From Harriotta raleighana (lineage: Eukaryota): a stretch of DNA of 64,000 nt. The notes beneath the pieces are model-generated. The model did no database searches. It was not told where the DNA came from and saw only the letters and a list, made by a program, of their open reading frames with translations. Location: positions 2,510,185 to 2,574,184 of the forward strand of contig JBNZDD010013622.1 in assembly GCA_050575255.1 (NCBI GenBank), given 5' to 3'. Positions 2,659 to 62,900 of the stretch are shown here, piece by piece (within the stretch, counting starts at the first letter, position 1; the number at the start of each line of letters is the position of its first letter). The position numbers and the translations under genes are program-made.

Positions 2659-2856
2659 TATAATATAGTTTACATTTAGGAAAGAGCAAGGATAGATGCA
2701 AAGACTGTGAGAAGATTGAAAGGAATGGATACAAACCAAATGATTCGGAAATTGAATACATAGAGCAAAATGCTCCAGTGTTACTTAAGGTTGTTTATAT
2801 CTGGTGACAGTTTATTGAATCATCGCACTTTGCAGTTTCAGTCCTGTTTTGCTCCA

Positions 2857-3245
2857 TTTCCATAACTGAAAACATTTTTTTATTAAAAAAAAGGTCAATT
2901 TGGATAAAAATGGGCTTTGTTCCATGTGAGAGAAATGAAATGGTTGCATCAATTCATTTTGACATCTGAAAATTGAGGAGGGTGGGGGGGAACAACGGGA
3001 TGTAATCTGATTGTTGGGTTCACAAGCCAAATGCAAAACAATGTGTGTNAATTTCCATAACTGAAAACATTTTTTTTATTAAAAAAAAGGTCAATTTGGA
3101 TAAAAATAGGCTTTGTTCCATGTGAGAGAAATGAAATGGTTGCATCAATTCATTTTGACATCTGAAAATTGAGGAGGGTGGGGGGGAACAACGGGATGTA
3201 ATCTGATTGTTGGGTTCACAAGCCAAATGCAAAACAATGTGTGTT
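2857..3245. repeat. About 190-bp tandem duplication across a single N (probable contig-overlap artefact)
   Basis: 2857-3048 is nearly identical to 3052-3245, with N at 3049. Confidence 0.85.
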
Positions 3246-4524
3246 GGGTTAAACCGTGAGCAAACATGTGCACATGCCCCCAAGTAATATGAGTAAGAAC
3301 CAAGGTCAAGGATTTCAGAGATGTTTGGAATTCTTTTATTCAGTTGTTAATTACATAATTAAGGGAAGCTACAATTAACCATTTGGAAGCAGTTAATGCA
3401 ATTTGCAAATTAGACCCATTATCAAGTAGCGTTTTTTTTCTCTCCTTTTCTGTGGGGTCAACTCAGAGCAAATTGAGCCAGGATTTTGTGAAGAGTGAAG
3501 CAGGTCTCCAAGCAAGAGCATTGGCGCTGCATCGATTAACATCTTCAGAAAGGATTGGATTTGGCTCTGCTGCGGATAGAATGACAGGTGCAGAATAACA
3601 TGAAAACACACTGCATTGATTTCTGTGAGGTGTAAGCCAGTAAAGGGGGGAGGGAGGGAGAGAAAGGGTTGATGACAGAAGACAACAAACACAAGATGAA
3701 TAGTGGAGATGTGAGGATGGATGAATATACAGCTCGGCACAAGCATTTTAATATATTTTGTGGGGGGAGAAATAGTGCAAAAGGAATGTTGCAACAGCTC
3801 TAACTTGTTTGGAGTAATTTGATGGGAAAGATCCGAGAAGTCAGAGGAACCACACACAGGTTCCAAGGTATGGCCTTGGTATAAAAAAGGCAATTCCTCC
3901 AAGTCACTGCGTGTATCAATATTTCATATTCAGCCGCTTTTTATCAAAGCGAGCTTCGCTAATTAAAAATAATTGACTCTCCATGCCAATTGGGTTTGTC
4001 AGAAACGATGTGTCTGCTATCCATTGTTGACATGTTCATTACAATCTGGTTCAATTCATGCTGTGTACAGGTCACTGTCTCTAATTTTATTTTGAGGAAG
4101 TAATTAGAAGTAAATGCTGTATTTTTTTTCCCATCTGTGCCAATTAGCAGCAGTCTCTGGGTTGAGAGGCTGGATTCCAATCTCTAACCAGTCAGACGGG
4201 CCTTTGAAGAGTACACAAGGAAACTGGCCGTTTGCGATGGCAGTGGTTGAGATTGGATGATTGGCTTCCTTCTGGGCCTGTCATTTCCATGTTTCTAACA
4301 GGATTGGATTAAATCACCAGAGAGGTTGATTGAAGAAGGTAACTTTAAGACCACTGGATCTCTGCCTTCCAGCACTAAACTGCATTTTGCACTTTTTGAC
4401 TAATAGAAAATTATCTTCAAAACATTAAAAATTTGGAAATACAGCATGTGGCGAAATGATACGAAATGGAGCGAATAATTGAAGTGCAATTTCTAAACAA
4501 GGGCATTAATATGTTAAATTGGAA

Positions 4525-6379: not shown

Positions 6380-6530
6380 GATGGAAGCAGCTGCTTATTG
6401 TGCAGTTTCCTGGCAGTCGATGGAGTGATTGATAACGATCAGTTTCACTACAGAACTCAACTGTGATACTGAGCTGATGCTGTGCTCTCAGGGAGGGATA
6501 GTGGCTGAAAACAGCTTCTCAACAGGACCT
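6380..6530 (+). other. Candidate non-coding first exon of PIRT (5' end uncertain)
   Basis: Unique sequence ending at donor cct|GTAAGT (6531); the PIRT ATG sits just after a splice acceptor, so an upstream exon is required. Confidence 0.45.
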
Positions 6531-6539
6531 GTAAGTAGT

Positions 6540-8958: not shown

Positions 8959-9907
8959 TGCACAGAATGTGGATTTGCGAGACTTGCCAGCCAGTATACT
9001 CATAAAGGAGTTAGATAAGCGCTTAAACCACCAAAGTGGATCTCAAGTGGTTCCTAGCAGCAATCGCAAATCACTCAAGTCAATCTGATATTTTTTATAA
9101 CAATATTAACCGAGAAATTATTGGACGGATTTTCACTCTGTGTTTAATCTGCTTCTTCTGTCAGTGACTGTTGTGTGATCGCAGGCCACACTGAGAACGT
9201 ATTGATTGTCATGCCAGCCGCACATTACTCAATCAGTCTGCACAGTCTGACAAACATTCCTGCTTGATTTGACAACAGGAAAAGGCACAACCTTTGTCTG
9301 CTCTATAAAAAGCCCAGTCCTGGCTAACGTCAAGACTTATTTTGTCTGTGATGGAATGATGGCTTGGCTGCTTGTGGAACTTTGCTGTACCCAAACTGGC
9401 TGTGGTGTACAACTGCGAACACACAGTCACTACACTTCGCAGTAAAAAAATTGTGAAGCACTTTGAGATATCTCGTCGACGTGATAAAGCACTATATTAA
9501 AAGCAAGGATTGTTGTTGTTGTTGTCATCTTTGGCATTGAAACAAAAAGCCCTGTTTGGGCAAAAAAAAGTAACTTAGCAAACTTTGTTTTGTTTATAAA
9601 TGCCATGAGGTTTATAAATGCCATGCACGAAAATATATTTTTATTCTAATTGTGAAGATGCTCAGTGAGGACTGAACAATCACTTTGGAAGCTGGATCTC
9701 TTCAGTCCTCAAAAGAGGTGTAGTTGTGGGAACTTTATAGAAGTATTTAAGATTCCAAATGGGTTTGAAAAAAAGTAAACCCAGAACTCACACGTTGCGA
9801 GGCAAAGGACCTTTTTCATCCCCCACAAAACCACCTCTGGTGGAAACTGTATTCAAATCATGTGTTTCTTTAATCCAGAGACAGATCCATCTACTCCAGA
9901 GGCTACG

Positions 9908-10309
9908 ATGGAAATGAGTTCAACTGAAAACTTTGACTTGGGTATAAGGTCCTATTCGGAGTCAAACGATCTCCTGACCAGCCAGACGGTGAGTACCTTG
10001 TACAGCAGCTCCCGGAGTGAATCCCTGTGGGCCTTGGAACGTCGGAGCGCCTGGGAGATTTACCACAAACCCATCATCATCATGTCTGTCGGAGGAGCGT
10101 TCTTTCTTTTCGGCTGTGTACTGACCGGATTGTATTTTGCGGGGATCAACAAGAAAACGTGCAACTTGCTGGGGCCCGCGGCCCTGTCCATCGGTCTGAT
10201 GTTCCTGGTTTATGGATTGGTCTGGGTCCCCATCATCAAGGAGAAGAGACAACAGAAGTCAATATCGAAATTCTACAGGAATCAAAAGATGTCCTTCATC
10301 CACCTGTGA
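9908..10309 (+). CDS. PIRT: Phosphoinositide-interacting regulator of TRP channels, 133 aa, single coding exon
   Basis: DLLTSQTVSTLYSSSRSESLW..WEIYHKPIIIMSVGGA..LSIGLMFLVYGLVWVPIIKEK matches recalled human PIRT; two TM helices and a basic C-tail; Kozak acgATGg; acceptor tttctttaatccAG at 9878. Confidence 0.93.
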   Translation: MEMSSTENFDLGIRSYSESNDLLTSQTVSTLYSSSRSESLWALERRSAWEIYHKPIIIMSVGGAFFLFGCVLTGLYFAGINKKTCNLLGPAALSIGLMFLVYGLVWVPIIKEKRQQKSISKFYRNQKMSFIHL

Positions 10310-11269
10310 GAAGCGATTGAGTGGATTGCACTCTTACTGTCCTGTCAAACTGTTGGCATTCCGCAACCGGGATCCATGCTAATGGTCACTGTGCGTCGGA
10401 GATTTCTGTTGAGTCAGCGATCGATATGTGTGTACCTGGGGAAAGATTGGGGGTTACCTCACTCTGCAAGTATTTCCTTGAAACCAATGAAACCAGGATG
10501 AGAGACTTCCAACAAGGTCCTGGGCAATGATGGCCCATTGAGCTGAACTTATGTTGGAATGGGATTAGTTAAACATTGAGAATTGGGTAGATTGCATGGC
10601 ATGGCTCATCAGAGCAGATCATTTCTGACTGTAAAGCCCCTGAAGCCACAAAGGATTGGAAATCCTGCATGTTATTGCTGGATCAGACAATCTGACAGCT
10701 AAGGGTCATCAATTGCCTATGTCAATATCATCGTAGATAAGGGAACAGTTGATCTTATCCATGGGCCATTTGGCAATGCTGCATGTTTGTGATTAAGAGC
10801 AGGGTACTGTGTATCCTGGGTCATTTGCAAAGGTGTAACTTTTGCTCAGTTAATTGGACGCAAACGCATTTGGCAAGTGCATGCTCAGTTTAAAAAAACT
10901 CTGTAGCCAACTGGATCTGGACTAAGAACTGTAAGTGTTACATGTAAATGTTACATCAGCCAATGATAAATTACACACTACGTTTCCTGTGTGGAGCATA
11001 TCACCATCAATGTCGCAAATCGCCTCCCTTAAACATTGTCTTTTCCCATAAATGTGCACAAACAAACCCACAGATTCCTTGTTTCTTTGAAGCTTGCGAG
11101 TTGATACTAAGTTATTATTACTATGATTATTATTATTATTATTAAGTTAAACCAAGTAGAAAATCCTGCCAATCCATTTTACTTGGAAGTACCCTCCACT
11201 CCACCATTGGAGTTTGAAGCCCAGTCACCACACCCTGTGCTCTAGTATTCTCTATCCCCACATTGCCTC

Positions 11270-11460
11270 CTTCATTAATCCTTCAAGACAAAAAAGAATA
11301 AATTGGTCATTTCAATCCACAACTGTTTGTGGGTCACTGTTATGCGCATTTTGCCCACAAATGTACAGTCAATTCATTTTACAGTAAATTTTGTGAAGTG
11401 CTTTGAGACGCCTAGAAGACATGAAAAGCACGATATCAAATGCAATGATTCTTCTGATCT
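11270..11460 (+). mobile_element. SINE, 5'-truncated
   Basis: Family body and tail. Confidence 0.85.
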
Positions 11461-11789
11461 ATTACTGCCTCACTTCCTCTCTCTCAGCCATTGAATTCAG
11501 TGAAGACTCTTCACCAGTGCCTTTGCTCACCTCTAAAGTCTTCCCAATACTTATTTGGTGACTCCTGCTCCTTTGTTATGTGCAGTGCAAATACAAGTTA
11601 AACCCTTAAGGATAATAATCCTTGCCTGTAGTAGGATTATTATCCGCCAATCGACTAACAATCGGGTTCCTTCTTACTGCTGGGCAAACAACAACAGCAA
11701 CCACAACAAACAGGCGTGTGGGGTAAGGAAACATGTCTAAGGTCGTCTTGTGTCGACTTCAGTGAAACGATGGGAGGAAAATATGACTA

Positions 11790-12142
11790 TTATCCTCCCA
11801 ACCTCAAACGGAAGCCTTGCCCAGCTCCACGTCCCTCCGAGCCAACCCGCCTCACCATTGGCGGACGAGCCATTAGCCACTCTGCCCCCGACCTCTGGAA
11901 CTCTCCATCCCGCAGTCCCTCCGCCTCGCCCCCCTCTCCCTGGCCTCCTTCAAGTCCCACCTCAAGAAAGACTCTCCTCTTCGATGGTCCCATCTGCGAC
12001 TCCTAATCCCCCATCTTTCCCTTCATCCCTCCCGCCCCTGACCCTAGCTCGGGTCTGACACAGTGACTGTCCAGCGCCTTGGGACGTCCTTCGGACATGA
12101 AAGGCGTTATACAAGTGAGATTTTGTTGTTGTTGTTGTTGTT
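11790..12142 (+). mobile_element. L2 LINE 3' fragment
   Basis: Translates as TIGGRAISHSAPDLWNS (L2 ORF2 C-terminus); tail cagcgccttgggacgtcc..gaaaggcg..(ttg)n. Confidence 0.85.
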
Positions 12143-12329
12143 GGACTGAGCTATTGTACTTGAATTTTCCAACTCAGCTGAAATGGAGCTGCTTTCATTG
12201 CATTCACAGCCCAGGGCAGAAACACAGAAGCTTTGCAATGTTTTCAACAGAAAACGAAAAACATTTGAACGGAATAACTTTCAATGAAAAACAAAGTCAC
12301 TTTTAAAAATGTCTGAAAGCTCAGTCCAT

Positions 12330-12780
12330 TGTGTGTGCGTGTGAGTGGGTTTGTTTGTGGGTGTGATTGTGTGTGTTTGTGAGTGCGGATGTGAGTGACT
12401 GTGTGTTGATGTGGGTTTACGTGTGAGTATTTGTGAGCGAGTGTGTGAGTGTTTGAGTGAATGAATGCGTCTGGGTGTTTGTCTGTCTGTGAGAGTGGGA
12501 TGGGAGTGTGTGTGTTTATGAGTGTGTGTGTGTTCGTCTGTCTGTGTGTGAGGGTGAGTGTGTTTGTTTGTGAGTGAGTGAGAGTGCGAGTATGTGTAAG
12601 TGTGTGAGTGTGTCTGTGTGTGAGAGTGCGAGTGTGTGTTTATACGCACGAATAGGTGTGTGTGTGTGTCTGTGAGTGTGATTGTGTGTGTGCATGCCTG
12701 TGTGTGTGTATGTGTCTGTCTGAGTGACTGTCTGAGAGAGTGTGAATGTGAATGATTGAGGGAGGGAGTGAGTGAGTATA
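12330..12780. repeat. Degenerate (GT/GA)n microsatellite
   Basis: Direct inspection. Confidence 0.85.
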
Positions 12781-12952
12781 AAGGTGTAACTTTTCACCTT
12801 GAGTTGATTTTCTGTCAAATCCAAACACAGGAAGGGAATTTACATCACTGGAGCCAGTTCCACCATCCTTACAGATTAGTGTGTGTGTGTGTGTGTTAGT
12901 TACACACAAACTATCCCTGTGTGTGTGTGTGTGTCCCCAGGGAGCTCAGGGG

Positions 12953-13438
12953 ATGGTGGGGAGGGTGAGGTCTGTGGGTCGGTGCCCAGGGATCTTCCTG
13001 TTGGCTTTGGCTCTGGATGTGGGGGGTTTAACGGTGCTTTTCATTGGTGTATTTGCCAACGTGAGGTTGGGAGGCAGAGCCCTGGGAGACTGTTTCATCT
13101 ACAGTGGAGCCATCGTTGTCTTCCTGAGCCTGATGGCTTGGCTGTTCTGGTACACAGGCAACATCCAGGTGCCTTTGGAGCCCCTGGAGAAAAACTCTCT
13201 CACCAAGTCTGTCAGGGGGTCCTCAGAGGGGAGCCATCAGCCCCAGCTGGACAAGGTGGTGGACTTGGATCTGAAGGAATTGTCCTCGACCATCAGTTGG
13301 GAATTGGCCAAACAACTGCTCCAGATCCCAAGGGGCACAGAGGAACAGCCAAGGCTGGTGGAGCTCATCAGTGTCAAGGGCTCCTTAGACTATCAGCCAT
13401 GCCCTGTCCCACTGCAGAATGGAGACCGACTTGTGTGA
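12953..13438 (+). CDS. TMEM238: TMEM238-family two-TM protein, 161 aa (exact orthology uncertain)
   Basis: GRC..F.LALALD..GL....GVFA......GD..IYSGA..VFLSL..W.FWYTGNI.V is the TMEM238 signature; acceptor gtgtccccAG at 12940; Kozak gggATGg; donor gca|GTAAGT at 13442. Confidence 0.85.
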   Translation: MVGRVRSVGRCPGIFLLALALDVGGLTVLFIGVFANVRLGGRALGDCFIYSGAIVVFLSLMAWLFWYTGNIQVPLEPLEKNSLTKSVRGSSEGSHQPQLDKVVDLDLKELSSTISWELAKQLLQIPRGTEEQPRLVELISVKGSLDYQPCPVPLQNGDRLV

Positions 13439-13624
13439 GCAGTAAGTCAGTGGGTCAGCTTCCCTTCATCACAGTTGGTTGCACTATTTCATTTTGAAAG
13501 TGGGAGAACTTTCACTCGCTTTACAGGAACCCCTCCCTCTAATAAGGAGTTTAGAGTGAACACCGACAGCTGTACAATGCAGTAGGTGAGATTTTATAAA
13601 GTGTTGGGAGAATTATATACTACT

Positions 13625-13995
13625 AATAATAATATAATCCTAGCATTTGGTGCAGTGCATTATCCAGTCATTGAGATGTCTTAAAGCACTTCACAAAATC
13701 TATTGTAAGGTAGATATGCTACTGTATCCGCGTTTGTCCCACACATATATGTATAGATACAGTCACCACACTTTACAGTATGTTCTGTGAAGCGCTTTGA
13801 GACGTCTAGAAGATGTGAAAACAACAACAAACAAAATGACATATTCGTAGAGTGCCTTTCATGTCGGAAAAGCACTACAGTATCTCAAATGCGAGGATTG
13901 TTATCAGTATCTTATGGGAGAAACGTGGCAGTCAGTTGCACATGTTAGTGACCCACAAACAGTCGTGGATTGAATGATCACATTTTTATATTTTA
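13625..13995. mobile_element. Nested SINE fragments in both orientations with an antisense L2 tail
   Basis: Family motifs on both strands. Confidence 0.7.
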
Positions 13996-15699
13996 TATGC
14001 AAGTCAGATATTTAATGGAAGCTGTCCCCGACTGCATGGATTATTTGTGAGAAGATAGCGCTTGATTGCATTGCTTATAGAAACAGCAACTTTCATAACT
14101 CCCTTCACACAGGCAGCTGGCTTTAGAACCCAGGAAGATAAGGTGTGTGCATGTATATATATAAGATGCGAAATATAGTTATGTTAATTGATTGAACTGA
14201 TTTTTCAGAATGATGATTGTATTAGTTGGGTATAAATGTACAAAATCAATATAACCTAATTTTATCAAAAATCAAATCATGGATTTAAGTCATGGAAATC
14301 TGGTTTAAACTCTCAGGTGAATTAAAAACTAAATTCTCTAATAATAATCATTCTTGCATTTGATATAGCTTGTTGTCGTGTCATTGAGACATCTCAAAAC
14401 GCTTCAGAGATGTACCATCGAGTGGATTGACTGTGTATTTCATGGGCGGAATCATGTTTAAGAGCCTGTACCTTGCAGGGATAAGGCAGTTTGGAATATT
14501 GAACAATTGGATAATTTACCTACAGCTGCAGTGTCAGCTGTACTCTATTGGTAACTACCCACCTCCTTCTGTTTCTATGGTCAAAGCTATTTGCACCTGA
14601 ATGCACCTCACCAGGTGCTTTTTAAAGTCAGTAACAAGCATTTCTGTTTACGTGACCACGAGATTCTTGTGTTGCAAGGAAACCCAACTTATAGCAATAT
14701 GATTCAAGCCTGTGTTAATCATCAGTCCAGGGAGCACATTGGTAGAGTTGGCACTGAGCTAATATGAGAATCATGCGACAAAATACTACACAAGAATGCA
14801 ACATTTATACTGTTTAAGCTAATAGCACTCCGGTAGCACCTTGAAGTTAAATCTCTGGTGTGATATTGTTTGTGTATGGTGTAGGTTTTTTTTGGGGGGA
14901 GGGGGTATCACTTGATTTGCCCCCAGAGTGTACCCCAAACCTGCCATTTGTGGGGTCACTGACCCTGAATTTGATCGTGTTCCTCTGCAGTGCCTCCCTT
15001 TGGAACTAATAACCCATTTGCTTTAAGCAGAGATTCTTTCTACCTGGCTTAACTTGACGGCTTTCAGGGAATTGAGTTCCATTAAGTGCATCCAGTGTAA
15101 TGATTTATTCAAACTTTATGTTCTTTTGCTTCCTGCTCTCACGAAACACCGAACGTACCAACTCTCCAGCACATTTTGTATCTCTTAATAGTTCCTCGAA
15201 ATTGATCCATTTGTATAATGCCTTGGATTTCGCTGCCAAAGCTCAATATTGAGTTATTTGACCTGTCTTATTATTGAATCTTAAGTGCTGAAGTGACCCA
15301 GAGCATTAGCAATTTTGCCAACTATTGACTTTGTCTCTGTGTTTTAAAGGCTATTGGATACAGCAGAATTCCATCTAAATCCATCTAAAGCCCCTTTTGG
15401 TCCTCCCAATGCACCTCCACCTCCACACCCAACTGACTTCGTAGCTGGTGGTGGTTGGAGCTGTTGGTGTTGAGAAGATTGACAGCCAGCAGATCTGGTA
15501 CCAAGTCAGGCAGACAAGACAGTTTAACATCTCCAGTGTAGCGTCCCCGAGCACTGTACTGGGTGACCAGCTTAGACTGAGTTCAAAGGCTTTAAAGATT
15601 GAACCCACAACCTTCAAAGGCACAAGAGCTGAGAATGCTACCAGACTGTGACAGTACAACAAATTGAACGCATATTTTGCGAGGTATTCCAGAGGCGCA

Positions 15700-15870
15700 G
15701 GATAATCGAGGGTTTGCACCTGAGCTGGAGGCTGGTTCAGTGGGAGGGGTTGGGAATGGAGGGTGGGGAGAGAATTCGAGGCATTTGGAGCTGGGGTGGG
15801 GAAGGGCTGGAAGGCGAGTGAAGCTGCTGTTAAAGAGGAAGGTGTTGAGAAGCACCTGTGAAAGTTGAGG
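15700..15870 (-). mobile_element. L2 fragment
   Basis: G-rich ggaatgga..gaattcgaggcatttggagctg..gaaggc, the reverse complement of the L2 AFS..AP.LWN region. Confidence 0.5.
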
Positions 15871-16868
15871 ATTATAGAGGGTTTCCCTTCTGGAATTCGT
15901 ATTGGTTATTAATTACATCATTAGTGTAGTGAAAGCCTGGAATTCCATCCATCCCATGTGTATCTGTGTGTGGTTTACCAAGACCACAAATTAGCCCCAC
16001 CCCTCCCTAAATACTGTGAATCATTATCAAAGTTTAACACATCAAACTCTGGATTGTGTCTTGTTGCCTTTGTTATTCCAGAAACCACAAATGCTGGTGT
16101 CCTCTGTGGATCTGGTGAACTTCCAAACAGTGCCAAACGATTACTAACCAGCACCCACTAGTGGATAGGCTGTTTGTCCATTGGATCAAGATACTGTACA
16201 ATCAAGATGTAGTTTCAATTCCTTTGCCAAAATAAATATTCTCAGTTTGCATTGAATTGTGACTCCAGCCAATCTGTCTTTGATCAATTCCTGAGGCCAT
16301 TAGTGCACATATTCTTGTTGATGTAGTTCCAACACGACTGCAGCACTGTTTATGACTGCCCTTTGTACCAGAGGCAGTTTATACCATCTTCACAAACTGT
16401 ACCATGTGTTAAAGTTCAAATGAAAATGAGGAGTTGTCCAAAGTAAACGAAAAAAAACACACACATGTTCCTAAGAAAAGAAATACACCCAGAAACTCTG
16501 GAACACACTTCCTCTATCCTTTCACCTTGTCCCCTCCTTCTTCATCTTCAGATCACATCTGAAGACCTTCCTCTTTGTGCCTATGGTCACAGCCCCCTCT
16601 CTCAGCTTAACGTTGTGCACCTCCCCCTGTTGAGCACTCTCGGATGCTTCGCTGCGTAAGGGGTGCTATATAAATGCAAGTTGTTGTTTGTGACTTGTGC
16701 TCAAGTTGTGTTCATTATTATTCCTTCAGTTTGTGGGACATTGCTGTATGCGGGTTGGCTGCCTCGCTGGCCCACAAGATGCATGTAGTCATACGCCACT
16801 ATGAGACGTCTCAACAGCATAAGACACAGTATTAAATGCAGTATTATTACTGTGTTATTCACAGTAGA

Positions 16869-17175
16869 ATCCTGTAGCCCAGTGGTTATAACCCTCACTT
16901 CACAAGCTAGAGACCTGGGTTCGATTCCCTGCAGGACGAAACCTTGAGCGAGTCTCTGCGCTCCACACACCTGATGATAATCCCTCAAGAAAATAAATAC
17001 ATAAATAAATCGCAGTTTGATCACTCATTCCATGGCTGTTTGTTGGAACACTGCTGTGCGCAATTGGCTGCTGCGTTTCGCCCACAAAAGTCAATCTACT
17101 TTTGAGACGTCTAGAAGACGTGATAAAACACTAATATCAAATGAAAGTATTTTATTTATTATTATTGTTATTATT
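16869..17175 (+). mobile_element. Near full-length SINE
   Basis: tRNA head and family tail. Confidence 0.85.
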
Positions 17176-18429
17176 GAGGCAAGACTGTTTTGCACTCAAG
17201 CTTTCATTTCTCTTTGGATAATTCCAGTTGGTAGTTTTGTTTACATGAGCACCGCAACGCCACAGAACAAACTGTGTTTCCTCTTTTTTTGAAACCCAGT
17301 TTTTTGAAACCCCTCCTGGGGTTCTATGAAAGCAAAGTGTCTCACAATGATTTATTAACCATTAACCTGCTCTAAACTGCCTCGTTCAGAACCTGAGGCT
17401 GGAGGAAACCGACTGTGTGAATTCGGAGAATGTTAATGTTATGAACAAGTCAAACACTCTGAGTTACAGACTTTCGTCCCTGAGGTTCCAATGCTTAATT
17501 CCCTGATTATTTTTTTGTGTGGGGTTGAGTTTTTAACCCTGGGACTTTATTTTTAATTAATTTTAAGCCTTCGTCGTGTGACTGTCACTTAATTAATGAT
17601 CTTATCTGGTTCCACAAACTCAGGTCGTAATGTGAGATTCTGTCTGTGGTGACTGAGCAAATTCCAACGAAACGATAAAGAAGCGGTTTCTACGCTGGTT
17701 GCATTTTTTGCATAATTTTCCCCTCGAGCAATGGACTGAACTACATTTAGTTTCCAACACTTGAGAGCCTTGCCTGGTGCTTATTAAATGATGCACAACT
17801 GCAGCTTCTCATTTATCGACGATCCTTTTTGAGAAAAGGGGTATTGTTACGGTGTTATTGCCTTAATGCCACCCTGATCGGGAGCCAGCAGTCAGCTCCC
17901 TATCACATTACAGAGGGCGTATTTACTTTTGACTAATGTGTAAGCTATTAACCTTTAACGCCTTCTTTACTTGAACCTGAACCTGAATGTTCAGTGAAGC
18001 CGAGTTCACTGCTGGTCCCACCAATATGTCCGCTGTGTGGAGCTTTTTTTGTGTGTGTTTAGGTTTGTCACAATAAAGTTTCTGCTTTTAAATATTTTGA
18101 GAGGACTTGACCTCTTGTGTTTCAACGCCTTGACCATTTACCGCACAAGTTGGTGGACAGCCTCGCGTGGTCGAGCAACATTGCCAGGAATCACCAGTGA
18201 GATGACGTGACCAAAGGTCCAATGTTTTTTGGCAACACATCAATAGATCCTGTCACAGCCTCTAATATAATGTGACCTCGCGATGATTTCACACCGGATT
18301 CTATACTTGGATTCTAAATAAAATGTCGATTCGACAATGAATCAGCAAGTAATGACAGTGAGGAATAGCAAATCCATCCCACATTAATTTGCCAATGTCC
18401 CATCGCCCTATCCAGGTGGCTGGCAAGGA

Positions 18430-18690
18430 TCTGGGACCTTGGCCTATCGTTTCATTCAAAAGATGGCATCTCCCAACAGTTCTGTGCTCCCTCAAGTCTG
18501 TTGTTTTAAGAATAATAATAATCCTTGCATTTGATATAGCATTTTTTCACATCTTCTAGTCATCTCAAAGTGCTTCACAGAATATACTGTAAAGTGAGTT
18601 GACTGTGTATTTGTGGGCGAAACGTGGCAGCCAATTGCACAGCAGCGTCCCACAAATAGCCGTGGATTGAAATGACCAATTTTTAAATTT
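18430..18690 (-). mobile_element. SINE 3' half plus adjacent Deu-domain remnant
   Basis: Reverse complement of the family tail. Confidence 0.75.
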
Positions 18691-19901
18691 ATTTTCAGGG
18701 TTATCAGGTTTCAATGGTGATTTCAATCACTCACTTCTTCTTAATAGTGGTATTTCCTAATATTTTGTTGATCGATTCGAAATGTTGAAGCCTTATAAGA
18801 TTTCAAGTGAGCATTCAATGGATTGATTGGTGAACTGGGTGGGAGAATGCGATTGCACAATAAGTTTGAATAAACCTGGGAACGACATGTAAATGTGCAG
18901 ATTGCCGGTGAGATAAGCCAATTCCTTTGTGTGTAACCATGTCCCACATCCAATAAATAATTTGTATAACAATAACAAAATTACACTTATGGAGTAATGC
19001 TCTTATTCCAATAGCCACAGGAATGCCGTCATTCTGTTGCCTCTCGTCATTTTTGCATGATCCGCACAGATTACATTCACAGCAATTCAAGCTTCATTCA
19101 TAAAACTTCAAAGGTCCTCATTGCTGCAGCTGAGCAGAACTGTGCAACTTGATGTGACAATGTGGTTTTAATTTTCTGGAGCTAAATGTTGAGCATAGCT
19201 AAATCTAGCTCAAGGCAGAAACAATCTGTGATGTAACCAGTGACACACACAAACTCAAGTGTTCACACCCCAGCTGTTGAGTTGTGCAAAGTCATGGTAC
19301 TTAAGTGCAATACATAATCCAGTGTGAAACCATACACTTGTTTTTGAACATAGGAGCAACAATAAAGTAATGATAATACTCCTTGAATTTGGTGTAGGGT
19401 CTTACACCAAAGCACGTAAAGTGCTTCACAGGAATTACTGTGAAATGGATTTGTAGGCGAACACAGCTGCCCAATCTCACACAGCAATGTCCCACAAACA
19501 GCCGTGAAACCAGTGACCGGTTTTATTGTGGGGGGAATGTTGGCCAGAAAACTGGGAGAAGCCTCCTTCTCTTTTCAGAATTGGCCATAGGATCTTCTCT
19601 CTTTTTCCAAAAGGAAAACTGGGAAAGAAAGGAGCCCGTTCCACCAGTTTAATGGATCCTGACAAACATATGAATCTCAAATGTGGGCCATCCTTTATTT
19701 TAAGGTTAATGTCGGGAGCAGGGTGTATCTAACATCAATAACATACTTTAACCTTTGTTCATTGTTGGCCCCCGGGGCTCTCCTGTCCCACCCTCTATAC
19801 CAGTGTAACCGACTTTAGCTGGTTAACTCAACACTGGCCAGCAGTCAGACCTGATCTGTAAGTCTTCATATTATACAACATAACTTTTTTTTATAATGAT
19901 G

Positions 19902-20180
19902 AAATAATAATCCTTGCATTTGATAGCGCTTTTCAGGTCCTCTCGACGTCTCAAAGTGCTTCACAGAATATACTGTAAAGTGAATTGACTGTATATTTGT
20001 GGGTGAAATTATGTGGCAGTCTATTGCACACAGCAGTGTCCCACAAACAGACATGGATTGAAATGACCAAATTCTTATAGTTTTTTTTGGTGTGGTAAAA
20101 TGATAAAATAATGATAAAATAATAATCCTTGCATTTGATATCGCGCTTTTCATGTCTTCCAGATGTCTCAAAGCGCTTCA
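19902..20180 (-). mobile_element. Two tandem SINE 3' fragments
   Basis: aataataatccttgcatttgata occurs twice. Confidence 0.85.
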
Positions 20181-21123
20181 CAATTTATTTTATGATTTTT
20201 TTAAAAAAGTGTGAAAACTCAAACATGGAGAGAGCTGGCAGGGATGGAAGATGGAGGAGGGAGGGAGTGGTGTGGGGTGGTGATGGAAGTTGAAGAGAGA
20301 AAGAGGTGATTAACTATGGTAAATTTTGAATAAACAAAACATGCCTCTCTGAATCGTATGGAAAACGTGGAAAACGCAGCTCTAGCAAAAGTAGCTTGGT
20401 TTAACTGTGGCAGGATCTTCTCCCAACATCACAGGAATCTGCTGAGGTCACCTAGACTTGGTATCAACCTGGCTCAGGCCAGCACTCGTCTCAAAGATAG
20501 ATTTGAGCATTAAACTCATAATTAGGATTATGATTATCATCATTATTATCATTGCTGCCACATTAGTCTACAGAAAAAAAAGTTCAATTGACAACAATTA
20601 TCTGTAAAAGACTTGACATGATCAAGTCTACAAGTATAGAGGATTACAATTATTAAAGGCCAGTGTCCCTGTAGACTACCTTCCCTGGCATCCCATCTGA
20701 GAGGCTCACAGACACTGTGAACCGTGGAGAGACGGGGTGAGGGAGGAAGAATATAATCCCATTATGTTAATCTTACAAATCCGGTTCTGTTAATGAGGGC
20801 ATTTTTCTTCTGTCATAGTAGGCGAGCAATGTTAAGCATGCAAAATAATGTGGTATTAAATTATGTGCCTCAGTTCTAAATACAATTGAGGCCAACCAAT
20901 TCAGCAATGTAATGTTACACTTACAGCTAAATCCTTTTCAAAACAATCCTTTGAAAACAAGCCAGAAATAATGGCAGCAAATGCACAAATAAATATCCAG
21001 CTCATGCTTCCTGCTTTTCTACTTATATAATATAATGACAACTATATAACTATATAACGTCAATCTCTCTTACATCTCTTAAATATTTACCATACTCCCA
21101 CATCATACTCCCACATGGTGACG

Positions 21124-21430
21124 TCCTGTAGCTCAGTGGTTAGAGCATTCGCCCTACAAAGCAAGTGACCCAGGTTTGATTCCTGGCAGGGCAAAACCTT
21201 GAGCAGATTTCCTTACTCCACATGCCTAATAATAATCCCTCAAAAAAAAAAAAAAATCGTCATTCCAACCCATGACTGTTTGTGTGCGCAATTTCCTGCC
21301 ACGTTTCTCACACAAATTCAAAGTCAATTCACTTTACAGTATATTCTGTGAAGAGCTTTGAGACATCCAGAAGATGTGAAAAGCACTATATCAAATGCAA
21401 GGATTATTATTATTGTTATTATTTATTTAT
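21124..21430 (+). mobile_element. Full-length SINE
   Basis: tRNA head and family tail. Confidence 0.9.
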
Positions 21431-21489
21431 TATATTAAAAATCCAACAAGCAATGAGTTACTAAAAAGCAATTATCCTGATTTATTTCC

Positions 21490-22440
21490 TCACTAGGAGA
21501 ATAGAGAATGGTAGTTTGAAGTGGGTAGGAATGATGCCGGATAAAGGTATCGGCATGTATTGGGGAAAGGAGGTGGAGCTGGGAGGTAAGGAGAGGGATG
21601 GGGATGGGGTCCAGGGAACAGATGGAGGGCATCCTGGAGGATATGGTGGTGATGACAGAGGATTGGGAGACAGTTTCGAAGGTATGGAAGGAGGGATGGG
21701 CAAGAGTCGGAGTGTGAGAGGGAGGTGGGGAAGGGGTGGAAGTTGGAAGGGCGGTGACAGCTGAGCGGATTCCCTCAATTTTGGGCTTGAGGAAATCCAG
21801 CAGCTCCTCATAGTAGGAAATGGAGGAAAGGATCTGCGAAGTGAGGCGAGGAGGGGAGGGTAGAGGAGGCAGTTTGTTGTGGAGAACAGGAATCTAGGGT
21901 TGTCGTTCACCTCCAGGATTATCCTGGAGTAGAAGAACGATTTGGCGGAGGTCAGAACGGAGCGATAAGTTTTGATGCAGTCCAGCCAGATATGCCGGTG
22001 AGACCTGTGTTCAAATCCAGGCAGATCAGGGCGAAACCTCGGGCAAGTTTCCTTACTCCACATACCTAATAATAATCCCTCCAAAAAAACCACAATAATA
22101 AAATTGGTCATTTCAATCCATGACTGTTTGTGGGACGCTGCTGTGCGCAATTGGCTGCCGCGTTCCGCCCACAAATATACAGTCAATTCACGTTACAGTA
22201 TATTCTGTGAAGCGCTTTGGGACGTCGATAAGATGTGAAAAGTGCTATATCAAATGCAAGGATTCTTCTTATTATTATTATTAAACCGTATTTGAGTCAA
22301 GTGCGTTTGGTAGCCCGTACTTGTCCCTTGAGCGAGTGGAAGTGGCTGGTGAACCAGGGTGAGGTTCGACAGTCGGAGGCAGTTTGGGAGGTGAGGGGAG
22401 CAATAGAGTTGAGTGCAGTGGAGCGGGTGTTGTGGAGGAG
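21490..22440 (-). mobile_element. Degraded L2 ORF2 internal fragment split by a SINE
   Basis: HIWLDCIKTYRSVLTSAKSFFYSRII...NPRFLFST is typical of the L2 EN-RT linker; frameshifted; continues at 22285-22440. Confidence 0.8.
21996..22283 (+). mobile_element. Young SINE inserted in L2
   Basis: Close to the family consensus. Confidence 0.9.
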
Positions 22441-22750
22441 AGCACTCGCCTTCCAAGCAGGAGATCTAGGTTCAACTCCAGGCAGGGTGAAACTTTGGGC
22501 AAGTCTCTTTACGTCACACACCTAAAAATAATCCCTTGAAAAAAAACAACAATAAATTGGGTCACTTTCAATCCACGACTATTTGTGGGGACACAGCTGT
22601 GTGCAATTGGCTGCCGCGTTTTGCCCACAAATATACAGTCCATTCACTTCACAGTACAGTACTGTATATTCTGGGAAGCGCTTTGAGACGTCAAGAAGAT
22701 GTGAAAAGCACTCAATCGAATGCAAGGATTATTAATATTATTATTATACT
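22438..22750 (+). mobile_element. SINE
   Basis: Partial head, body and tail. Confidence 0.9.
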
Positions 22751-23444
22751 ATTAAAGGCACAAGCAACTGAAGTCACAATTCCCCCTTCAAAGCAGCTTC
22801 CCCCCGCCCCTCCCCAGAGAATATTGCTAAAGACTAAGTGGTTTCTGGCTAAACCTGTTTGAAAACTATCTTAACCAAATGGATCCCAGGGTAAAGTCAG
22901 GCGACTGAGAGAGACACCAAGTATCCTGTGAGCTTTGCAACAAGCTTGTGATCAATTCTAGATTGAAGCGATTTGCTGGACAAAAGTTAATGTTTAAGTC
23001 ATTGTAAAATAATTTATTTGCCACAGAGAGTGGGGGCAGCAGAGATTAAACGTGAGTCTTCATTTTTTGTGTGTGTATTTTTTTTAAAAAAGTGTGGCTT
23101 GTGGTGTCTGCCGTTTAATTGATCATTTTGTGGTATTCAAAACTAAACAGGATTTTAATTGCACATTTATGCATCTCTGATTTAATGAATCATTTCATCC
23201 CTGATCAGAGTTCAACCAGTCAGTCACAGACAGTCAATCAGAATTTAATGTGGTCGATGCTAACACAGGGATCTCACTCCCGAGTGAGTGAGTGAGTGTG
23301 AGTGTGCATTTCCTATTTTAGGAATAGGTTATATATAAAGCATGTGGAAAACTTGTCATTTGATTCCAATTTCAATATTGAAGTTTGGGCATCTTTGACC
23401 TGTTTTTTTTGTGTGTGGAAATCTACACAAATTCTGCATTTTCT

Positions 23445-23835
23445 TTGATCTCTCTGTCTCTGTGTCTGTCTCCCTAATCTCTCTCTCTCTCTGTGTCTCT
23501 TTGATCTCTCTGTCTCTGTCTCTCTCTGTCCCCTCGATCTCTCTCTTTCTCTCTCCCTGTGTCTGTCTCCCTAGTCTCTCTCTCTCTCTCCCTGTCCCCC
23601 TGATCTCTGTCTTTCTCCCCCTGTGTCTGACTCACTAATCTCTGCGTGTGTTTGTGTGTGTGTCTCTCCCTGTGGCTTCCTTAACCTTTTCTCTCTGTAG
23701 TTCCTCCTTATCTGTAGGTTGTGGCTGTCTCACCTGTCCTGTCCCCTCCCTCCCTCCCTCCCTCCCTCTGCCCTTCAGTCTCTCAGTCTATTAATTCCCT
23801 CTGTCACTCTGCATGTGTGTGTGTGTGTGTGTCTC
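23445..23835. repeat. CT/GT-rich low-complexity tract
   Basis: Direct inspection. Confidence 0.8.
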
Positions 23836-23895
23836 TCTCAGGTGTGTGAGTGAGTAGTGAGTGAGTGAGTGAGTGAGTATCAGACACAGGTTCTG

Positions 23896-24132
23896 ATGCC
23901 AGGCTGCAGTGATATCATCGGGAGATGTGGGTGGCTGTTTGTTCTGGGGGTGCTGTTCGATGTGGGTGGGTTTGTGATCATCTTGGTCGGCATCTTTGGC
24001 CAGTTGGAGTACTTTGACTTCTTCATCTTCAGCGGGGCAGCCATAGTCTTCCTCAGCCTGTTGTGGTGGTCTTTCTGGTACTCGTTTAACCTGGGGGTGA
24101 AGGAGCCCATTGGGCTGGACTACATCGTGTGA
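23896..24132 (+). CDS. TMEM238L: TMEM238-like microprotein (FORCP-like), 78 aa
   Basis: GRC..LF.L..LFD..G......GI...L...DFFI..GA....LSLL.W..WYS.N matches recalled human 79-aa TMEM238L, which also neighbours PIRT; acceptor ctctctcAG at 23841; donor aag|GTGAGA at 24181. Confidence 0.88.
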   Translation: MPGCSDIIGRCGWLFVLGVLFDVGGFVIILVGIFGQLEYFDFFIFSGAAIVFLSLLWWSFWYSFNLGVKEPIGLDYIV

Positions 24133-24184
24133 AAGACACTGGCAGGCTGGAGACTTGTGGGATGGTCACTGCCCTCCAAGGTGA

Positions 24185-43679: not shown

Positions 43680-44571
<892 letters not shown>

Positions 44572-44639
44572 TAAGCTTCTAACCCCGGCTAGCAATGTCA
44601 CATTGACTGGCCTCTAGCTAGCCCCGTTATACAGACACG

Positions 44640-62657: not shown

Positions 62658-62900
<243 letters not shown>

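Follow-up and report, generated by a model that had tools for sequence, protein, structure and literature searches.

Do three small membrane-protein genes that lie in a row in the genome of the chimaera Harriotta raleighana (GenBank assembly GCA_050575255.1) descend from one gene by tandem duplication and share a role as channel accessories, or are they members of different families in one old neighbourhood? The stretch analysed here, called the window, comprises 64,000 nucleotides of contig JBNZDD010013622.1 (C13622:2510185-2574184), and positions are numbered within it unless a contig is named. The three genes are intact open reading frames (ORFs) on the plus strand, spanning 14,225 bp:

9908-10309, plus strand, coding sequence (CDS) of PIRT (gene 1), 133 amino acids (aa), single exon, transmembrane (TM) helices 56-74 and 92-110
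12953-13438, plus strand, middle gene, TMEM238 family, 161 aa, long-loop type, TM 14-32 and 47-65
23896-24132, plus strand, third gene, TMEM238 family, 78 aa, short-loop and tail-less, TM 16-34 and 42-60

We read the locus as PIRT and two TMEM238 paralogs without detectable kinship to it, in an old and likely duplicated neighbourhood, where PIRT would act through its basic tail and the TMEM238 proteins would be hairpin subunits of the endoplasmic reticulum (ER), and we give this reading a probability of roughly 0.6. An initial annotation of the sequence had described three ORFs of 133, 161 and 78 aa within 15 kb, each with two hydrophobic helices, and had named them after PIRT and the TMEM238 family; all of this is borne out by the present analysis.

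Family membership of the three genes

The Pfam family PF15099 (PIRT) matches gene 1 with 132.7 bits (E 8e-39, cut-off 30.6), and PF15125 (TMEM238) matches the 161-aa and the 78-aa gene with 78.4 bits (E 5e-22) and 74.9 bits (E 6e-21), respectively, against a cut-off of 27. These matches are far above chance; the three genes are of known families and carry annotation in a related chimaera already. Gene 1 carries the signature KP..G..G / GP..S.G.M..GLVW.P of the PF15099 members, is 91% identical to PIRT of Callorhinchus milii and 54–58% identical to rodent PIRT, and stands outside the PIRT-like clade described below. A further in-frame ATG at 9860 would give a protein of 149 aa; the start at 9908 is favoured because the Callorhinchus protein has 133 aa, starts with MEMSS and is so similar. 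A Callorhinchus protein matches the middle gene along its whole length with about 70% identity, and both TMEM238 genes keep the residues C11, D22, G25, G32, D41, G47, S54, W58, W61, Y62 and N65 of their family. AlphaFold predicted a hairpin for the 78-aa protein (pLDDT 86.6, helices H12-34 and H40-65) and, with low confidence (pLDDT 59), for PIRT. The two TMEM238 genes of the cluster are paralogs with 39% identity (BLAST E 2e-17), so for this pair the proposed tandem duplication holds.

PIRT and TMEM238 as separate families

The wider claim, in which tandem duplication gave rise to all three genes, finds no support. Pairwise BLAST of PIRT against either TMEM238 gene gave no match. For profile comparison, the TMEM238 alignment contained 154 rows (four genes of this genome and the best 150 of 283 HMMER matches to the 78-aa protein in a library search; a word-index search with the same protein returned none) and the PIRT alignment 49 rows. 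Aligned by hhalign, the two profiles reached a probability of 1.8% over 17 columns, and the 59 long-loop TMEM238 rows reached 1.0%, while the controls PIRT-TMEM100 and PIRT-TMEM200 gave 75.5% and 74.6%. The TMEM238 profile scored 0.6–1.7% with those of TMEM100, Neurensin and TMEM200. Moreover, local shuffling of the profiles gave scores as high as TMEM238-PIRT in 7 of 40 cases (in 15 of 40 when just the long-loop rows were used), and none of 40 shuffles came as high as TMEM100-PIRT or TMEM200-PIRT. The same pattern was seen in Pfam scans. Among 27 PIRT proteins, 15 matched TMEM100 and 16 Neurensin; among 142 TMEM238 proteins Neurensin was matched three times, and neither PIRT nor TMEM100 was among the matches listed, which cover 25 of 66 families. 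Cross-searches between PIRT and TMEM238 with hidden Markov models (HMMs) gave 5.1 and 3.6 bits at best, compared with 23.6 bits for the PIRT model on TMEM100.

Fold searches with the TMEM238 and PIRT models returned generic hairpins only, the best having Z 7.5 for TMEM238 (rmsd 2.6, 64 aligned) and Z 8.4 for PIRT (rmsd 6.2, 93 aligned, from the low-confidence model). The top TMEM238 match at Z 7.5, a chain of the Cav1.1 complex, was rejected since it tied with unrelated coiled coils, and a search of the ESM Atlas with TMEM238 clusters excluded gave no usable match. The profile comparison between TMEM238 and PIRT found nothing beyond generic TM helices, and the two appear from their sequences to be families without detectable kinship.

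By profile, the hairpins of TMEM100 (PF16311), Neurensin/TMEM74 (PF14927) and TMEM200 are like PIRT, and TMEM100 also has its basic tail, whereas none of them is linked to TMEM238; the profiles suggest a PIRT/TMEM100/Neurensin/TMEM74/TMEM200 superfamily. Proteins from two loci, which we take to be TMEM200-like, align to PIRT over both helices with 75% probability and 0 of 40 shuffles as high. Three TMEM100-family genes were seen, on C13507, C13650 and C13702, of which one has diverged strongly and just reaches the cut-off with 34.2 bits; the flanking 15 kb or so on each side of the three contain neither a PIRT nor a TMEM238 gene. TMEM100 is reportedly involved in TRPA1-TRPV1 regulation.

A second PIRT-TMEM238 block and the age of the linkage

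The neighbourhood of the two families is nevertheless old. A profile search of the genome found two PIRT-family and four TMEM238-family genes above cut-off, and a second pair lies on contig C13585:

C13585 882276-882677, same strand and order as its TMEM238 gene, second PIRT (PIRT-like), upstream of TMEM238 by 3,519 bp (2.6 kb on C13622)
C13585 878220-878756, same strand as the PIRT-like gene, TMEM238 gene of the second block

A Shisa exon stands head to head with each block and points away from PIRT, at 130 kb on C13622 and 312 kb on C13585, so that the two contigs have Shisa, PIRT and TMEM238 in common, in the same order, and qualify as a paralogous block. From their motifs we take the two Shisa genes to be SHISA6-like and SHISA9-like. 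A weak, sub-threshold match to NTAN1 was also seen near the second block. Since the PIRT-TMEM238 arrangement recurs on another scaffold with a Shisa gene, it likely predates an early vertebrate genome duplication, in which the block was probably copied. In sheep, the gene order is TMEM220, LOC101114033, TMEM238L, PIRT and SHISA6, as given in PMC11836209. Furthermore, PIRT and a long-loop TMEM238-like protein are found on one scaffold (adjacency is not implied) in Callorhinchus, in the caecilian Rhinatrema and in the toad Bufo. The pair on C13585 and the order in sheep agree that the linkage is conserved among vertebrates, and most simply it would reflect an old neighbourhood instead of one duplicated gene.

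Gene 1 shares the hairpin, the signature and the polybasic C-terminal helix with known PIRT (PF15099); the feature peculiar to this genome is the second paralog, 38% identical to it. The clade of the second PIRT comprises Callorhinchus, sawfish, skate, paddlefish, sturgeon, gar and lungfish with support of 98/100, and this distribution from sharks to lungfish gives a minimum age for the duplication and suggests that the split within PIRT predates the jawed-vertebrate radiation, in a tree of 23 rows with an unreliable root and with neither a jawless-fish PIRT nor an invertebrate outgroup included. All eight database matches of the second PIRT come from cartilaginous fish, non-teleost ray-finned fish or lungfish, and no tetrapod appeared in this search of limited reach; the database annotation calls the lineage merely 'PIRT-like'. 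Members of the TMEM238 lineage beside it occur in a marsupial (P0082) and a bird (P0072), and further ones are P0111 and P0184. It is possible that tetrapods kept this TMEM238 gene after a one-sided loss of the second PIRT, which was not found in them. The second PIRT lineage provides a natural comparison for the evolution of TRP/PIP2 modulation.

Beyond these genes, neither a PIRT or TMEM238 gene nor a remnant of one turned up when 60 stretches around the loci, 654 kb in all with the window among them, were scanned with HMMs; the scan took in the 80 kb that precede a third Shisa gene. Weak matches on C13611 and C13423 proved not to be family members. Neighbouring genes were annotated from 37 of 54, 54 of 228 and 29 of 115 filtered ORFs, and some may have escaped this annotation. 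What this work adds is the second PIRT together with the duplicated PIRT-TMEM238-Shisa block; no account of the block was found in the literature searched, and ohnolog tables (PMC13450315, PMC4504502) or subscription papers may already list these pairs.

If unrelated, PIRT and TMEM238 might be tied by shared regulation, either by common enhancers or by a shared non-coding first exon, with coupled expression in some tissue. The gaps of 2.6 and 3.5 kb preserved in both blocks, the single poly(A) hexamer between PIRT and the middle gene, and a human antisense transcript over both TMEM238L and PIRT (one table row in PMC11603882) would fit such coupling. However, human FORCP, the product of TMEM238L, is described as gut-specific and as having its own FOXA1-bound promoter (PMC7673786), PIRT is described mainly from sensory ganglia, and TATA-like sites stand ahead of both TMEM238 genes in the window, so that we think coupled regulation improbable as the tie between them.

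Assignment of the TMEM238 genes

To assign the TMEM238 genes, supported clades were taken from a tree of 34 chosen rows, and a 154-row tree was used as a quick tree only. The gene on contig C13714 is the ortholog of mammalian TMEM238 (100/99 with the lemur and turtle proteins) and lies, in the region C13714:1975129-2002898, between two LCAT-family genes that are in tandem on the strand opposite to it; exons of an anoctamin and of USB1/HVSL are nearby. A search for IL11, intended to place this locus, gave no match. The gene of the second block on C13585 is of the si:dkeyp-72e1.6 type (99/99), and the 161-aa middle gene forms a clade with 'TMEM238-like' proteins of Callorhinchus and sharks (P0063, P0068, P0081; 97/93).

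For the 78-aa gene the initial annotation had used the name TMEM238L. In the tree it groups on a long branch with sheep TMEM238L and short teleost forms at a weak support of 54/50, an approximately unbiased (AU) test rejects neither alternative (p 0.23, 0.15), and the BLAST scores against TMEM238L slightly favour the middle gene (63.5 bits compared with 58.9 bits). On the other side, it is 48% identical to sheep TMEM238L over 61 aa, and the two agree in length (78 and 79 aa), in a 6-residue loop, in the missing tail, in a non-Gly residue at position 64 and in their place downstream of PIRT. Its length, loop and position thus match the name while the tree and BLAST leave it less secure, and the gene is likely the ortholog of mammalian TMEM238L/FORCP. 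The two TMEM238 genes of the cluster are members of PF15125 like TMEM238 and TMEM238L, and this genome keeps four lineages of the family, namely those on C13714 and C13585 and the two in the cluster. Lamprey and hagfish members also exist, and all five that are named are of the short-loop type. FORCP, which has been treated as a mammal-conserved micropeptide of a long non-coding RNA (lncRNA), therefore belongs to a family that reaches lampreys and hagfish and likely has an ortholog in cartilaginous fish.

Exon layout, tail charge and the case for divergent duplicates

The initial annotation had also proposed a shared exon layout, with a splice acceptor 12–54 nt before each ATG. The candidate sites in and around the three genes are as follows:

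6528..6536, plus strand, candidate donor CCT|GTAAGT of a putative non-coding PIRT first exon, seen in the sequence
9859..9878, plus strand, candidate splice acceptor 29 nt before the PIRT ATG, from the sequence and a rule-based score
12777..12784, plus strand, TATAAAGG, candidate TATA box 176 nt before the middle-gene ATG, seen in the sequence
13439..13447, plus strand, donor-like site 3 nt past the middle-gene stop, candidate for an intron in the 3' untranslated region (3'-UTR), score 6.4, reached by 9.8% of the background
23822..23841, plus strand, candidate acceptor 54 nt before the ATG of the 78-aa gene, from the sequence and a rule-based score
24178..24186, plus strand, donor-like site 48 nt past the stop of the 78-aa gene, 3'-UTR intron candidate, score 10.4, reached by 0.6% of the background

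An AG does lie 29, 12 and 54 nt before the respective ATGs. The acceptor rule is passed by two of the three cluster sites, the 12-nt site of the middle gene failing, but also by 21% of positions drawn at random from the window (within 60 nt) and by the unrelated LRR-Ig neighbour, and by none of six paralogous genes; these AG sites are weak evidence and not diagnostic. If the TATA box TATAAAGG, which a stricter pattern search did not catch, is in use, the coding exon of the middle gene could be exon 1 and the 12-nt 'acceptor' idle. Upstream of the 78-aa gene a TATA-like site is found at 23330. The shared layout is contradicted by the 3' side, where a donor-like site 3–48 nt after the stop occurs in 4/4 TMEM238 genes and 0/5 PIRT/TMEM100 genes. 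The background fractions are 0.098, 0.006, 0.041 and 0.203 for the former and 0.42–0.95 for the latter; Fisher's combination for TMEM238, calculated by hand, is about 0.002, in a post hoc comparison with approximate weights.

The tails of the proteins differ as well. Human PIRT, a regulator of sensory channels, is reported to bind PIP2 and the S1-S4 domain of TRPM8 through a polybasic C-terminal helix (PMC6773951) and calmodulin through a 1-14 motif in that helix (PMC7175203). In gene 1, TM2 is followed by a polybasic helix that carries a calmodulin-type 1-14 motif, I109..F122, counted by hand after the definition in PMC7175203. A net charge of at least +3 over the 15 residues after TM2 is found in all 48 PIRT rows (gene 1 included) and all three TMEM100 rows, and in 0 of 152 TMEM238 rows, whose tail is net acidic in 88% (mean 0.8 K/R and 3.5 D/E). 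The three ruminant TMEM238L proteins likewise have no basic cluster there. To judge from these residues, TMEM238 has an acidic stretch where PIRT has its functional polybasic helix. Among 154 TMEM238 rows, C11, D22 and N65 are kept in 99% and G25, G32, G47, S54, W58 and W61 in 100%, and the near-invariant positions sit on one face of each helix; the Asp of TM1 is present in 99%, and PIRT is without charge in its TM helices.

These data also bear on the view that PIRT and TMEM238 are pre-vertebrate tandem duplicates diverged past detection, with TMEM238 proteins acting as TRP-type auxiliary subunits like PIRT and TMEM100. Old tandem neighbours of similar size are often paralogs. Both families are small single-exon hairpins, adjacent and co-oriented in two blocks, both have GxxxxxxG in TM1, and many TMEM238 proteins carry a distal basic segment. 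However, the glycine motif lies at a different depth and hhalign aligns just 17–21 columns, the N-terminus ahead of TM1 is 10–16 aa in one family and 42–60 aa in the other, tail charge is opposite, the 3'-UTR donor pattern is unlike, and TMEM238 gives no profile signal where PIRT links to TMEM100 and TMEM200. Together with the pull-down table of human FORCP, which lists no TRP channel (PMC7673786), this makes that view doubtful, a little more so than shared regulation.

Proposed function of the TMEM238 proteins

Under our reading, in which the two families are neighbours without detectable kinship, each would act in its own way. By analogy with human PIRT, the polybasic helix that gene 1 retains would be a binding site for PIP2, calmodulin and TRP or P2X channels. 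In TMEM238, the near-invariant residues may build the core of the hairpin and a surface for binding in which an acid is buried. The evidence on partners comes from human FORCP/TMEM238L, which is described in the ER of gut epithelium, where it promotes ER-stress apoptosis; BRI3BP is the sole partner validated by co-immunoprecipitation (co-IP), and CERS2, KDSR, TMEM109, ERMP1 and others were recovered in four of four replicate pull-downs (PMC7673786). BRI3BP and TMEM109 make up the MG23 family, and MG23 oligomers are reported to conduct cations in bilayers (PMC9496750); a BRI3BP-family gene is present in this genome. From these pull-downs and the orthology we infer an intramembrane accessory role in the ER, in which TMEM238 proteins would serve as hairpin subunits and bind, within the bilayer, to a membrane partner; the first candidate is the BRI3BP/TMEM109 (MG23) family and the second CERS2/KDSR. 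The channel-accessory role proposed initially does not hold in its PIRT-like, TRP form, and would survive only through the ER MG23/BRI3BP family, on the data of one human paper. No account of TMEM238 as a channel subunit was found in the literature searched; subscription papers may differ. The attractive view of TMEM238 as a relative of PIRT is thereby corrected, and tests are redirected to the ER partners and the invariant TM aspartate.

Several points weigh against our reading. Neurensin-PIRT, likely a true link, also falls within its own null (4 of 40 shuffles), so the shuffle test misses weak links; the control profiles of TMEM100, Neurensin and TMEM200 have 2–4 rows only; and missing homology is not proof, because short hydrophobic hairpins may lose all signal. 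A distal basic segment is present in 126 of 148 tailed TMEM238 proteins and could bind lipids, though the 78-aa protein lacks it and the 161-aa protein has it in weak form. That the blocks arose by genome and not segmental duplication rests on Shisa and one sub-threshold NTAN1 match, a 3-kb pairing kept in two blocks for so long exceeds usual neutral drift, and at the third TMEM238 locus, on C13714, no PIRT was found in the 150 kb scanned. The FORCP data come from overexpression in one cell line that perhaps lacks the relevant channels, and TMEM109 gave just 1–2 spectra per replicate (PMC7673786).

A bolder form of the proposal would make the TMEM238 proteins vertebrate-wide auxiliary subunits of ER MG23/BRI3BP cation channels, gating or assembling them via the buried Asp, and would see in the locus one of two early jawed-vertebrate PIRT-TMEM238 cassettes, both next to the gene of a Shisa AMPA-receptor subunit, hence a twice-copied channel-accessory cluster of which mammals keep a remnant and whose second, uncharacterised PIRT is still present in sharks, sturgeons, gars and lungfish; we regard it as speculative and unlikely, if slightly less so than shared regulation. 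Least probable of all is that the proteins of the TMEM238 family regulate sphingolipid synthesis in the ER (CERS2/KDSR) as small subunits, tuning ceramide and hence ER-stress apoptosis; small membrane proteins, when overexpressed, often bring down ER enzymes. Its support lies in CERS2 (spectra 11, 6, 8, 10) and KDSR (11, 4, 2, 8), found in all four pull-downs with zero in the controls, in ACSL5 and HACD3, found in four and two pull-downs, respectively, and in the promotion of ER-stress apoptosis by FORCP, against which stands that the authors validated BRI3BP alone (PMC7673786).

Neighbouring genes and comparison with the mammalian locus

The present locus resembles the mammalian TMEM238L-PIRT-SHISA6 locus in that PIRT lies between a 78–79 aa TMEM238 gene and a Shisa gene and that a TMEM220-like exon is on the same contig. 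It differs by the extra 161-aa TMEM238 gene between PIRT and the short gene, by a single-exon LRR-Ig gene between Shisa and PIRT, by TMEM220 lying beyond Shisa, by a FOXK gene downstream and by the second PIRT-TMEM238 block in the genome. The human locus is on 17p. The TMEM220-like exon (C13622:1886540-1886686, minus strand) scores below the Pfam cut-off, and its place beyond the Shisa gene gives an order unlike that in sheep, implying an inversion.

A segment of about 200 bp occurs twice in tandem, nearly unchanged, at 2850-3050 and 3050-3250 of the window, with an N where the copies meet; it may be an artefact of the assembly. A FOXK gene starts at 44044 on the plus strand, with an FHA exon at 44044-44574 and forkhead exons near 62676, and a second FOXK gene is on C13706. 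We take the one in the window to be FOXK2 from its motifs, a search of the PDB being ambiguous between FOXK1 and FOXK2. Finally, the LRR-Ig-TM gene (C13622:2496664-2498055, plus strand) lies between Shisa and PIRT, 22 kb upstream of the latter, where the sheep gene list shows none; it encodes 463 aa in a single exon, has an acceptor 4 nt before its ATG, and is the only copy in the genome at E<1e-15.

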